Source: Mobula hypostoma
Lineage: Eukaryota
Assembly: GCF_963921235.1 (NCBI RefSeq)
Contig: NC_086108.1
Span: 16,554,001 to 16,618,000 of the forward strand
Reading direction: 5' to 3'
Length of the DNA stretch: 64,000 bases
In this document: piece after piece, positions 31,076-33,283 of the stretch
Layout: the number at the start of each line of letters is the position of its first letter
How positions within the stretch are numbered: position 1 is the stretch's first letter
Made by a program: the position numbers and the translations under genes
The notes under the pieces: model-generated
What the model was told of the DNA's origin: nothing
The model's database searches: none
Seen by the model: only the letters and a program-made list of their open reading frames with translations

Positions 31076-31282
31076 TTTTAGGGCATTCAACAAGGCAAGC
31101 TAGTAGAAGCAGTGCTGTCTAGGTCTAGGGTTCTAGTCTGGACACCACTTCTATAAGGCAACCTACATCTCTGTTTACATCATTTTCTGCATTCATAGAG
31201 GGTAGCACTTAACCTTTGCTAACTTATTTAATCACAGGATGATGCTTGAAATGTTAGCTATTATCCCCTAACAGTCACATAT

Positions 31283-32680
31283 TAGAGAGGAGGGTTAGCA
31301 ACCACCTCAGGAGATAGCTGGGGCTGCCAAAGAGCCTGAGCAGCATCGCACTCTATCGACACCACAACAAACTGCAACTGCCCTTCAAATCCTTGGAGGA
31401 AGAATTCAAGGTAACAAGAGCCAGAGAAGTGCTATAGTATAGGGACTCAAGTGACCCAAAGGTGGTTAGAGCAGGGATCCAAGTAAGTACTGGCAGGAAG
31501 TGGAGGGCAGAGGAAGCTGTTCAGGAGGCAGAGGCGAGGCTGCGTCACAGGAGGCTGGTGGGAGTGGTCACACGAGGCCGAGCTGGGCTAGGATCCTTTC
31601 CAACTCCCCAAATGGACACCAGAGGGAAGGAAAGGCGTCGTCTAGTTCAGGAGGAGGTGAGAGCAGTAGTGGAGGAGTTGAGAGCCTGCAAGGCGGTGGG
31701 AATGAAGCAACAGGGAGCTTGGACAAGATGGGAGAATGTGGTTGAGAGGAAAGTGACCTGGGCTGACCTTTGGAAAGCCGAACCACACCGCATCCAATTT
31801 CTCATCCAGGCAGTGTACGATGTGCTTCCAAGCCCATCAAACCTACACACACGGGGCAAGGCAGAGTCATCTGCGTGCCCACTGTGCTCCAAGTGAGGAA
31901 CTCTGGAGCATATCCTCAGTGGCTGTGCAAGAGCACTTGGTGAGGGACGGTACAGGTGGAGGCATGATCAGGTCCTGAAGACCATCGCTGAAGCCGTCAG
32001 TGCAGGCGTTGAGTGGGCGAAGCGGTCCCGACCCTCCAAGCAGACCATTGCCTTTGTCAGCGCTGGGGAGCAGCCAATACCTGCCAAAAGAACATCTGCA
32101 GGCATTCTGACCTCTGCAAGGGACTGGCAGCTGTTGGTGGACCTCGAAGGGCAGCTGAAGTTCCCCAACCATATTGCAGCCACCACCCTGCGACCAGACA
32201 TTGCCCTAGTGTCTGAGGCTACTAAACAAGTGGTGCTGCTGGAGCTGACAGTCCCATGGGAAGATAGCTTGGAGGAGGCCTTTGAAAGGAAGCTCTCCAA
32301 GTACGCAGGACTGGTCAGCAACTGTCAGCAGGCTGGATGGAGAGTGAGGTGTCTCCCAGTGGAGGTTGGTTGTAGGGGATTCATAGCCCGTTCTTTAGTT
32401 AGGGCCTTCAGCATTTTGGGCATCGAGGGAGAGAGGAAGAGGAGAGCCATCCGCAGTACCACCGATGCGGCAGAGAGGGCCTCAAGATGGCTGTGGCTCA
32501 AAAGAGAGGAGCCATGGAGTCATAAGTAGCTAGCCATCCGGACACAAGCTGGGGTCTGATTAGCCCCGGCTGGGTCACCTGGAGGAGGTTGTATGATGTT
32601 GAAAGACCCGAAACACCCGATGATTCCAGGAACATCACTGAAGATGTGTCCAGAAGCATCAATAGATGTATGTACACAAC
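31283..32680 (+). mobile_element. HERO-clade non-LTR retrotransposon, 5'-truncated (CCHC plus restriction-like endonuclease)
   Basis: ORFs 31462-31896 and 32134-32529 share one frame, broken by a TGA. Motifs GRKW, CPLC...HILSGC, RHD, RPDI...ELTVPWE...K, VEVGCRGF, SRWLW. Confidence 0.88.
32540..32651 (+). ncRNA. Candidate non-circularly permuted hammerhead ribozyme in HERO 3' UTR
   Basis: All core nucleotides are in register (GUA 32591-93; GAAA 32610-13; CUGAAGA 32638-44), with stems I, II and III formed in rearranged order. Confidence 0.6.
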
Positions 32681-33283
32681 AGGCATGCAGGGCAAGGAAG
32701 ATAGGTATCCTAAACAAAGAAATGTGAACCAAATAGGTTTTATAACAACCTGGTAATTTCATGTATGTCGTTACTTATGTAAGGAATACTAACAGATCTA
32801 GCTGCTTGAACTTATACTCCCAGCTGCCAGGATGGTGTTGAAATTTAGTAGCTCAAAACTCTGGCTGCTTTTCTAGTATTTCAATTGTTGTACCACTGTA
32901 CTGTGAAATAAGCCTTATCTAGCACACTCCCCGGTGCTAATATCACTACTACTACTACTTCTCAAAATTGGAGCTATCCAACCACCTGTAGGTACCATAA
33001 TTATATGGATAGCTATAAATAAAGTTGCCAAGGAGTATGGGACAGGATCTTGGATTGGCACTAGTTTTAAATTTACAGCATTATTATTGAAACAGAGAAT
33101 TACGTGGTGGCTATGAGAATTCACTCAATTTAAACATGATTGGTATTTTCCTGAGAACATCAATTTCTGTTAATATGTTTCTGATACTTTTCTTCCTTTA
33201 GTCATGGCATCAGCTCTTGTCACAGGACAACTACACAGAGCGATACTTCAGTACATTACGTCATACACAAAGCAAACACATAC

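Follow-up and report, generated by a model that had tools for sequence, protein, structure and literature searches.

Cervera and de la Pena reportedly found hammerhead ribozymes in Penelope-like elements and in retrozymes. These are minimal or type I/III hammerheads, borne by non-autonomous repeats or, in GIY-YIG elements, by the terminal repeats. The closest described architecture to the one considered here is type SGC (the HRIMA-1 motif and its variants), which was experimentally validated by Eckert, Friedrich, Weinberg and Weinberg in 2023 (PMC10085705). In that work, only six orders of the hammerhead blocks are held possible, given blocks that cannot be broken; block C is assumed to be uninterruptible, and a fourth helix is described as needed for cleavage. 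As the original prediction for our locus had stated, non-circular permutations of the hammerhead were already in print with this work.

We analyzed a 64,000-nt stretch of Mobula hypostoma DNA, hereafter the window, that contains a candidate hammerhead in the 3' UTR of a retrotransposon. Our best explanation, to which we assign a probability of roughly 70%, is that positions 32539-32652 hold a genuine hammerhead with undescribed wiring in a dead copy of the element, multimer trimming being its most likely role. The wiring of this hammerhead domain has not been described before; full-text literature searches returned no paper on the retrotransposon association or on the wiring.

The host element and the layout of the domain

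Homology between the window copy of the element (Table 1) and other copies begins at ≈31282. Poly(A) is absent from the window copy, whose 3' terminus reads ...GTACACAAC(AG); this 3' end is common to 30 copies with unrelated flanks beyond, and the 5' ends of element copies are scattered. At E ≤ 1e-3 the ORF in the window has 651 longer homologues, which carry RVT_1 and zf-RVT domains, and relatives of the element protein are found in many teleosts and in amphioxus (Tetraodon, 63%; Branchiostoma, 57-58%). Tetraodon and Branchiostoma are the hosts of HEROTn and HERO-1/3_BF in Repbase (PMC7650587), and the HERO label fits the element insofar as its protein relatives occur in hosts of Repbase HERO members.

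Table 1. Positions in the window of the retrotransposon copy and of the parts of its putative ribozyme domain
Feature	Position	Strand	Description
Retrotransposon copy	31282..32682	+	non-LTR, restriction-enzyme-like endonuclease type; decayed, 5'-truncated, ≈1.4 kb
ORF C-terminus	31897..32529	+	210 codons, CCHC and endonuclease region; stop codon 32527-29
P0 closing helix, 5' strand	32539..32546	+	ggacaca 32540-46 pairs with tgtgtcc 32645-51; the chain enters here
P1 hairpin	32547..32571	+	agctgggg 32547-54 / ccccggct 32564-71; 9-nt loop
Stem II strand 10.1-10.5	32572..32576	+	gggtc; pairs with gaccc 32605-09; 5' of the other blocks, separate from CUGANGA
Fourth helix ("brace"), 5' strand	32578..32583	+	cctgga; 1 nt after strand 10.x
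Stem III strand 16.6-16.1 and H17	32587..32593	+	ggttgt; H17 is A32593
Stem I strand 1.1-1.7	32594..32600	+	tgatgtt; 7/7 pairs with aacatca 32631-37
Linker, distal end of stem I to distal end of stem II	32601..32604	+	gaaa, 4 nt
Block G	32605..32618	+	stem II strand 11.5-11.1 (gaccc), G12 A13 A14, stem III strand 15.1-15.6 (acaccc)
Fourth helix ("brace"), 3' strand	32625..32630	+	tccagg; directly abuts stem I strand 2.x; covaries in relatives
Stem I strand 2.7-2.1 and core	32631..32644	+	aacatca, then C3 U4 G5 A6 N7 G8 A9 (CUGAAGA 32638-44)
P0, 3' strand	32645..32652	+	begins immediately 3' of A9
Small tail hairpin	32656..32669	+	gcatc aata gatgt; between ribozyme domain and element 3' end; by eye

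All of the hammerhead motifs listed in the original prediction are present in register when read from the sequence, as are its strand order (cleavage, GAAA, CUGANGA) and its 4-nt linker joining stems I and II; its helix coordinates were exact in every case but that of ccccggct, which it had placed at 32565-72, one position too far downstream. The blocks follow one another in the order S, G, C (32587-600, 32605-18, and 32631-44), with GAAA at 32610-13 and a GUA cleavage triplet that puts the predicted cut at 32593|32594. Stem III forms five of its six pairs in the window (ggttgt 32587-92 with acaccc 32613-18), the exception being a mismatch between t32589 and c32616.

The chain would enter via P0, form the P1 hairpin, and supply strand 10.x of stem II and the first strand of the fourth helix; it would then run through the cleavage strand (16.x, H17, 1.x), a short linker, and the GAAA strand (11.x, G12 A13 A14, 15.x), and finally through the second strand of the fourth helix, 2.x, and CUGANGA to exit via P0. 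In the window, strand 10.x precedes CUGAAGA by 68 nt, and in 40 of 40 relatives CUGANGA is followed by P0, not by 10.x, with no alignment column between A9 and P0. The three core strands are not each uninterrupted, 2.x-CUGANGA-10.x being the broken one. At the break, P0, P1, stem II, and the G.A-pair domain would meet with zero spare nucleotides in a linker-free four-way junction. P1 would stack on P0 within this junction, and we infer, by analogy with stacked four-way junctions, that A9 stays stacked on G10.1.

Read in this way, the wiring is that of a type-SGC hammerhead that has undergone circular permutation, with the opening placed between A9 and G10.1. The original prediction had called the layout the reverse of every circular permutation; the order was right, and the type-SGC description is the more exact one. 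The canonical type-SGC layout was rejected, the tgtgtcc that follows CUGAAGA being unable to pair with gaccc and having ggacaca as its partner. One block broken between A9 and G10.1 and bridged by a four-way junction would mean a larger search space for ribozymes.

Several parts of the domain vary in their own right. At 32539 the window copy has a C of its own instead of the T of its family. For the pair 32539-32652, family A has U-A where the sister families have G-C; for the fourth-helix pair 32583-32625, A-U in family A likewise corresponds to G-C in the sisters. The P1 loop sequence YUGAUCA is largely conserved, and 18 nt of the P1 hairpin are missing in one contig of a relative. By eye, the tail hairpin takes the forms CAUC/GAUG, CACC/GGUG, and CUUCC/GGAAG in relatives.

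Detection and covariation among relatives

Rfam models gave no match in the window at gathering score, none at E ≤ 10 in 32300-32900, and none at E ≤ 1 in loci L021, L022, L185, and L195; the broken block explains why standard models fail to detect the domain. The nested fold of the window copy has a z of -1.36, with 17 of 200 shuffles folding equally well, and a relaxed descriptor finds two further places in 128 kb (both window strands; ≈1 per 64 kb) and, among 300 shuffled sequences 660 nt long, matches 3. The pattern in the window copy alone does not exceed the chance level. All of this is what one would expect if an ordinary structured 3' UTR had acquired hammerhead-like words beside its helices by accident, as is the chance occurrence in viral contigs of 38 exact matches to a 16-base CUGANGA-box pattern, where the longest alignment to the motif is 20 nt. 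Accident is nevertheless extremely improbable, given that a strict descriptor matches 0 of 200 shuffles and nothing on either strand of the window (128 kb) and that six helices covary around an invariant core in relatives down to 33% protein identity. The motif stands above chance because related sequences share it. The strict descriptor does match loci L198, L200, and L222, at 18-35 nt from the end of the ORF.

The window's own family supplied 64 copies spanning 32500-32690; they are 95-100% identical to the window copy and show no covariation, so we turned to sister families and to other sequence collections. Among 65 metagenome loci with proteins 33-85% identical to the window's, the same domain of ≈115 nt follows the stop codon in 44. 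In 40 of the 44, the motif was detected directly after the ORF by a covariance model built from the nested helices only (E ≤ 4.6e-7), which leaves stems I and II, the pseudoknot helices, outside the search model; the other four were recovered by cmsearch without filters and/or by descriptors. By both model and descriptor the motif is absent from seven loci with ≥260 nt downstream (L189, L191, L207, L214, L221, L228, and L237). The domain also occurs in sister families of the same genome and in contigs of four other organisms; the latter served only for reading variant letters.

Across 40 aligned sequences, 93.1% of cells pair, versus 34.9-41.6% when partners are slid by 1-3 columns. Changes on both sides occur in 31 of the 40 pairs, and the alignment contains 283 double-change cells versus 71.7 ± 6.9 in shuffles, with 0 of 500 shuffles reaching 283. 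For stems I and II only, the helices outside the search model, 87.9% of cells pair versus 32-44% when slid, with 66 double-change cells versus 16.8 ± 3.2 in shuffles. Compensatory changes are found in all eight pairs of P0 (95.4% of cells paired in the 40 sequences) and in seven of the eight pairs of P1, and covariation extends to four of five pairs in stem II (94.4% of cells paired), three of six in stem III (95.6%), four of six in the fourth helix (93.8%), and five of seven in stem I (82.8%), whose outermost pair is poorly conserved (10/34). The stem III U.C mismatch of the window's young family stays uncompensated in 75 of 85 copies, and one sister family has A.C in its place, which is a structural point against the hammerhead reading.

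Both stems take different sequences in different lineages: GGGUC/GACCC in stem II accompanies UGAUGU/ACAUCA in stem I, GCCCC/GGGGC accompanies CCGAG/CUCGG, GCCC/GGGC accompanies CUGGGU/ACCCAG, and GGUGC/GCACC accompanies AAGAUC/GAUCUU, with GACUC/GAGUC and GGCGC/GCGCC as further variants of stem II. The linker varies in both length and sequence (GAAA, GUGA, CAAA, CGAAUA). G10.1-C11.1, the usual though not absolute closing pair of hammerhead stem II, is GC in 31 and GU in 3 of 36 sequences.

The core, by comparison, is nearly fixed, with C3, U4, and G5 each present in 39/40 sequences, A6 and A9 in 40/40, G8 in 38/40, A13 and A14 in 38/38, A15.1 in 38/39, and U16.1 in 37/38. G12 is G in 30 and A in 8 of 38, C11.1-G12 forming a CpG. 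All four bases occur at N7 (U26 C6 A6 G2), and at H17 C and A together account for 35 of 38 (C19 A16 U2 G1). Conservation of the core and covariation of all six helices among relatives are as the original prediction anticipated, with N7 and H17 the positions that vary. Because distant relatives preserve the fold and each of its helices shows matching changes, we take it to be real; it is almost certainly under selection, and the sequence comparison indicates that the domain is very likely a genuine self-cutting RNA. With the exact core 24-mer of the motif in at least 1881 copies in the 3.5-Gb genome and with relatives in teleosts and amphioxus, an abundant class of animal ribozymes may have stayed unseen.

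Predicted cleavage and possible roles

Self-cleavage at 32593|32594 is likely. By analogy with known hammerheads, the cut between A32593 and U32594 would leave a 2',3'-cyclic phosphate and a 5'-OH, and ≈25 base pairs (in P0, stem II, the fourth helix, and stem III) would clamp both products, so the nick should be reversible. In the genomic record, none of the 39 copies that retain the last 89 nt begins at 32594, nor does any of the 14 upstream partial units in dimers. Both bases before 32594 are altered in only 11 of 1881 copies genome-wide, seven of which resemble point mutants, and at most these 11 could begin at the predicted cut. These counts give no support to templates that begin at the cut. 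Every longer copy is unbroken across the site, from which it follows that insertion templates were uncut or resealed.

Such continuity would also be seen if a hammerhead-derived fold did not cleave in vivo and served only as a 3' UTR handle for the reverse transcriptase in target-primed reverse transcription. An internal-deletion derivative of the element retains the last 328 nt, as expected of a cis-acting 3' signal, and R2 elements are reported to bind a pseudoknotted 3' UTR (PMC12222951). The break itself counts against catalysis, in that detachment of 10.x from CUGANGA is without precedent and a break adjoining both A9 and G10.1 might disable the ribozyme. However, a handle gives no reason for the exact catalytic nucleotides to be kept in 95-100% of the 40 sequences with N7 free and H17 avoiding G, and helix sequences have been wholly replaced between lineages, which leaves the protein no helix sequence to read. 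One role does not exclude the other, and the folded domain may be a recognition target of the reverse transcriptase as well as a ribozyme. We therefore consider a handle devoid of cleavage improbable.

The organization of the copies points to what a self-cleaving domain might do. Of 20 copies with a 5' UTR, 14 have the tail of another unit directly upstream with one identical junction, and two more begin 1-2 nt before that junction. A complete upstream motif is present in 7 of the 14 dimers, where the motif precedes the 5' UTR of the next unit by 87 nt. Same-strand copies ≈3.6 kb apart occur on C1. A Tetraodon non-LTR element "with tandem structure" was reportedly described by Bouneau et al. 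in 2003; the Tetraodon relative AAN12398.1 is possibly this element.

The presence of head-to-tail dimers in 14 of the 20 copies suggests trimming of multimers, in which transcripts that are multimeric or read through would be shortened by the single ribozyme of each unit. Because the cut falls where the catalytic body begins on its 5' side, the ribozyme of the upstream unit would set a 5' end 87 nt before the next 5' UTR, and since the motif in dimers precedes that 5' UTR, the terms "3' ribozyme" and "5' processing" can be compatible. We put trimming of multimeric transcripts to unit length forward tentatively, at a little short of even odds.

An active ribozyme might instead limit or partition the RNA, with molecules not bound by reverse transcriptase cutting themselves and being discarded, or act only on host read-through. 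Most copies of the element are single and 5'-truncated, of the 28 metagenome loci that bear the motif and extend ≥450 nt downstream only L185 and L195 have a next unit in tandem, and insertion templates that were uncut would suit such a role. It has no direct support, however, and it leaves unexplained both the precise junction shared by the dimers and the position of the cut at the edge of the catalytic body; we regard it as quite improbable. Template jumping by the reverse transcriptase could account for the dimers equally well, the ribozyme being uninvolved.

Multimer trimming could also form part of a retrozyme-like LINE cycle, in which head-to-tail copies would be transcribed as multimers and cut by their hammerheads into unit RNAs whose clamped ends could be resealed, possibly as a circle. 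The resealed circular or nick-sealed RNA would be both translated and reverse-transcribed, and a reverse transcriptase circling more than once would remake the genomic dimers. A circular intermediate seems to us unlikely, and the full cycle is likewise doubtful. With a ribozyme linked to a dimer-forming LINE of the restriction-endonuclease type, the question of how such elements set their RNA ends becomes addressable.

Comparison with known ribozymes

The domain shares with the classic types I-III (Rfam Hammerhead) the CUGANGA and GAAA sequences, a UH cleavage site, stems I-III in register, and the pairs G10.1-C11.1 and C15.2-G16.2. The classic types form a pseudoknot-free three-way junction, whereas here all three stems cross. 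With the hammerheads of Penelope-like elements and retrozymes it has in common one hammerhead per unit, head-to-tail repeats, and proposed cutting of multimers to unit length; it differs in its large size and pseudoknots and in its host, an autonomous element that has a restriction-enzyme-like endonuclease.

The HDV-like ribozyme of R2 and other non-LTR elements offers a functional parallel, as it is reported to cut at its own 5' edge and can free element RNA from an upstream co-transcript (PMC3774820). That ribozyme is of another class and lies in the 5' UTR, whereas the present domain belongs to the 3' UTR and takes an "upstream" position in dimers only. When the 5' UTR of our element was searched for an HDV-like ribozyme, there was no match at E ≤ 1.

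The strongest likeness is to type SGC (PMC10085705). The two share the order of the cleavage, GAAA, and CUGANGA blocks, all core nucleotides, a crossing of the three core stems, and a short linker between stems I and II, typically 3 nt in type SGC and mostly 3-6 nt here. Both also have a fourth helix that connects stems I and II on their other sides, and by our reading of the text cctgga/tccagg, which covaries in our alignment, is this helix; what the original prediction had taken for one of several bracing helices is likely the one that type SGC requires for cleavage. The differences lie in the connections. In type SGC, 10.x is directly 3' of CUGANGA and the RNA ends at stems III and II, whereas here 10.x and its fourth-helix strand are on the 5' side, CUGANGA leads into P0, and P1 completes the four-way junction. 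The context differs as well, type SGC coming from metatranscriptome RNAs alongside hairpin ribozymes and the present domain from the 3' UTR of an animal retrotransposon.

The motif and its host element

Every motif listed in the original prediction, which had read a scrambled-order hammerhead core in the 3′ UTR of a HERO element, is present in the window sequence; the one correction is to the 3′ strand of P1, which had been placed at 32565-72. Taken alone, the motif in the window sequence is weak evidence. Rfam gave no match to the window at the gathering score and none at E ≤10, and the nested fold of the window copy is unremarkable (z = −1.36, with 17 of 200 shuffles equally stable). A strict descriptor found no other match in the window and none in 200 shuffles; a relaxed descriptor for this layout found two further matches in the window's 128 kb and matched three of 300 shuffles.

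Elements of the motif in the window copy, all read in the window sequence, and pairs changed on both sides in the 40-sequence alignment of relatives
Element	Sequence and window positions	Strand	Pairs changed on both sides
P0 (closing helix)	ggacaca 32540-46 / tgtgtcc 32645-51	+	8/8
P1 (hairpin)	agctgggg 32547-54 / ccccggct 32564-71	+	7/8
Stem II	gggtc 32572-76 / gaccc 32605-09	+	4/5
Extra (fourth) helix	cctgga 32578-83 / tccagg 32625-30	+	4/6
Stem III	ggttgt 32587-92 / acaccc 32613-18, 5/6 pairs	+	3/6
H17	A32593	+
Stem I	tgatgtt 32594-600 / aacatca 32631-37	+	5/7
GAAA	32610-13	+
CUGAAGA	32638-44	+

The host is a non-LTR retrotransposon that lacks poly(A). Its ORF, which includes both a CCHC motif and an endonuclease region, has its stop codon at 32527-29; the motif starts 10 nt past that codon and ends ≈30 nt short of the element's 3′ end. 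The window copy begins at ≈31282. Thirty copies share the 3′ end ...GTACACAAC(AG), beyond which the flanks are unrelated, and the 5′ ends are scattered among copies in the pattern of target-primed reverse transcription. An exact 24-mer of the motif is kept at 1881 places in the 3.48-Gb genome. At E ≤1e-3, 651 longer homologues of the protein were found, with RVT_1 and zf-RVT domains. Teleosts account for many of them; a Tetraodon polyprotein is at 63% identity, and Branchiostoma proteins are at 57-58%. Because Tetraodon and Branchiostoma are listed as hosts of Repbase HERO members in text of PMC7650587, the HERO label is plausible by host overlap. The C-terminal domain is 83 to 87% identical in very distant teleosts (eel, flatfish, pipefish, herring), which is unusually high for a transposon and makes horizontal transfer worth testing.

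Other forms of the element were also seen. In a non-autonomous derivative (L021, L022, L028; also L015, L026), the 5′ UTR and approximately the first 45 codons, matching the N terminus of protein P0004, are joined directly to the element's last 328 nt at window ≈32354, and 5 of the 30 sampled copies share this start point. At locus L031 (763-2154, minus strand), the first ≈110 residues of an open frame (FYLLPKIHKP...GRPIVS) resemble a Penelope-type reverse transcriptase and are fused in frame to a 5′-truncated copy, so one element was probably inserted into another. Within the 31-nt tail, a hairpin (gcatc aata gatgt, window 32656-32669) seems by eye to covary in relatives (CAUC/GAUG, CACC/GGUG, CUUCC/GGAAG) and may be a priming or RT-binding end.

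Conservation and covariation among relatives

The 64 copies of the window's own family over 32500-32690 are 95 to 100% like the window copy and uninformative on the fold; the window copy carries two private changes, C at 32539 (T in 80 of 85 family copies) and T at 32561 (C in 81 of 85). Contigs of four other organisms gave the first hint of motif variants: T32589>G, restoring the mismatched stem III pair; A32593>C; CUGAUGA or CUGAGGA in place of CUGAAGA; and A32583>G accompanied by CC at 32624-25. Two single contigs, to which we give no weight, join 32501 to 32597 (X12; 95 nt skipped, junction 3 nt from the predicted cut) or lack 18 nt of P1 (X9).

Pattern searches for older sister families in the same genome returned 532 places with N7 other than A, and two longer patterns matched 129 and 137 places. 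Because each pattern fixes some positions, we used sister copies only at positions left free by it. Across 130 aligned copies, covariation between family-level majorities is seen in P0 (32539-32652, U-A/G-C), P1 (32551-32567, G-C/A-U), and the extra helix (32583-32625, A-U/G-C). Loops and joiners vary, and within stems I to III and the core blocks the majorities differ only at N7, H17, two distal stem III positions, and the outermost stem I position. C11.1-G12 (32609-32610) and C15.6-G (32618-32619) are CpG sites at which TG or CA is common in old copies; this is ordinary methylation decay, which has inactivated G12 in many fossil copies.

Starting from 13 aligned proteins, we retrieved 65 metagenome loci encoding relatives at 25 to 85% identity. 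BLASTN located the motif directly after the ORF in 26 of these loci, plus one partial, and a covariance model trained on 29 sequences and restricted to the nested helices (P0, P1, extra helix, stem III) found it in 40 loci at E ≤4.6e-7. An unfiltered model search added L222 (3e-10) and gave weak matches on L198 (0.09) and L200 (1.1) that coincide exactly with strict-descriptor sites having all helices; the relaxed descriptor added L211, bringing the total to 44 of 65. Seven loci with enough downstream sequence lack the motif, and the other motif-less loci end too early.

All six helices covary among these relatives. In a MAFFT alignment of the 29 sequences, 93.0% of cells are paired and 20 of 40 pairs change on both sides, values reached by none of 500 shuffles. 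In the 40-sequence alignment, which was fitted to the nested helices and so favours them, 93.1% of cells are paired versus 34.9 to 41.6% with slid partners, 31 of 40 pairs change on both sides, and there are 283 double-change cells versus 71.7 ± 6.9 in shuffles. Stems I and II lie outside the model, their columns being fixed only by adjoining invariant words; alone, they show 87.9% paired cells versus 32 to 44% slid, and 66 double-change cells versus 16.8 ± 3.2 in shuffles (0/500); by a coarser pair count 9 of 12 pairs covary, a number reached in 32 of 500 shuffles. The two stems differ outright between lineages, which combine stem II GGGUC/GACCC with stem I UGAUGU/ACAUCA, GCCCC/GGGGC with CCGAG/CUCGG, GCCC/GGGC with CUGGGU/ACCCAG, and GGUGC/GCACC with AAGAUC/GAUCUU; stem II also occurs as GGCGC/GCGCC and GACUC/GAGUC. 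A YUGAUCA word in the 9-nt P1 loop (window 32555-32563) persists even among distant lineages with wholly different stems, and could be a tertiary contact or protein site.

The core is nearly invariant: C3, U4, and G5 (39/40 each), A6 and A9 (40/40), G8 (38/40), A13 and A14 (38/38), A15.1 (38/39), and U16.1 (37/38). G12, within the C11.1-G12 CpG, is G in 30 and A in 8 of 38, and G10.1-C11.1 is GC in 31 and GU in 3 of 36. N7 varies freely (U26 C6 A6 G2), H17 is C19 A16 U2 G1, and the linker joining stems I and II differs in sequence and length. This pattern is that of a hammerhead, beyond mere structured RNA. The hammerhead reading of the original prediction, which had staked itself on core conservation and stem covariation among related copies, withstood that comparison.

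Predicted cleavage and head-to-tail dimers

We put the probability of self-cleavage at 32593|32594 at roughly 0.7; catalysis is the only apparent reason for keeping G5, A6, G8, and G12 and excluding G at H17. Copies in the genome speak against cut templates having been used often. None of the 39 copies that retain the final 89 nt (39 of 40 places examined) starts at 32594, and both bases before 32594 are changed in only 11 of 1881 copies, 7 of which have CC, as expected of point mutants from a sister family. Resealing of the cut RNA is plausible because ≈25 bp, contributed by P0, stem II, the fourth helix, and stem III, would continue to hold both products together.

Using the beginning of the 5′ UTR as query in this genome and examining short upstream stretches (L246-L279), we found that in 14 of 20 copies another unit's 3′ tail abuts the 5′ UTR, with an identical junction each time; two more start 1 to 2 nt before the junction and four inside the 5′ UTR. 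Because most 5′-UTR copies are thus preceded by another unit's tail, templates are usually longer than one unit. The upstream units start at scattered points (five beyond the examined stretch; ≈32486, 32531, 32610, and 32615; five at ≈32630-32647), and seven contain the whole ribozyme domain. Same-strand copies on contig C1 lie 3614 and 3622 nt apart (54852514/54856128, 119849649/119853271), suggesting arrays of ≈3.6-kb units, and 2 of 28 metagenome loci with at least 450 nt downstream (L185, L195) have the next unit's N-terminal coding region ≈280 to 290 nt past the motif.

Template jumping by the reverse transcriptase would produce such dimers equally well, with no ribozyme involved. Our preferred role, held tentatively and at a little under even odds, is nonetheless that the ribozyme processes multimers to unit length. 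In a dimer, the cut made by the upstream ribozyme would fall 87 nt before the 5′ UTR of the following unit, leaving the catalytic body on the downstream RNA in the geometry of a 5′-processing ribozyme; two successive cuts would yield unit-length RNA with clamped ends.

Wiring and comparison with type SGC hammerheads

Full-text literature searches returned no description of this wiring, nor of any hammerhead in such an element. By fold and conservation, the motif is a hammerhead whose block C is split, and it sits in the 3′ UTR of an abundant LINE encoding a restriction-enzyme-like endonuclease. The break between A9 and G10.1 is a linker-free four-way junction, because in all 40 aligned sequences P0 abuts P1, P1 abuts 10.1, and A9 abuts P0, with no intervening column. 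P0 would stack on P1 and stem II on the G·A-pair domain, so that A9 could stay on G10.1.

As described in text of Eckert et al. 2023 (PMC10085705), the hammerhead divides into blocks S, G, and C, assumed to be uninterruptible, and a non-circular type SGC has been validated, in which a linker of ≈3 nt runs from stem I to stem II and a fourth helix, required for cleavage, joins the other sides of these stems. The window RNA likewise has the order S, G, C, with a 4-nt linker, and its extra helix, which pairs the stretch following 10.x with the one preceding 2.x, is, going by that text, identical to the fourth helix described there. It differs in one respect: 10.x and the fourth-helix strand lie at the 5′ side rather than after CUGANGA. 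As these types are set out there, the layout falls outside the six of Eckert et al., and the wiring is that of type SGC circularly permuted, with the opening placed between A9 and G10.1.
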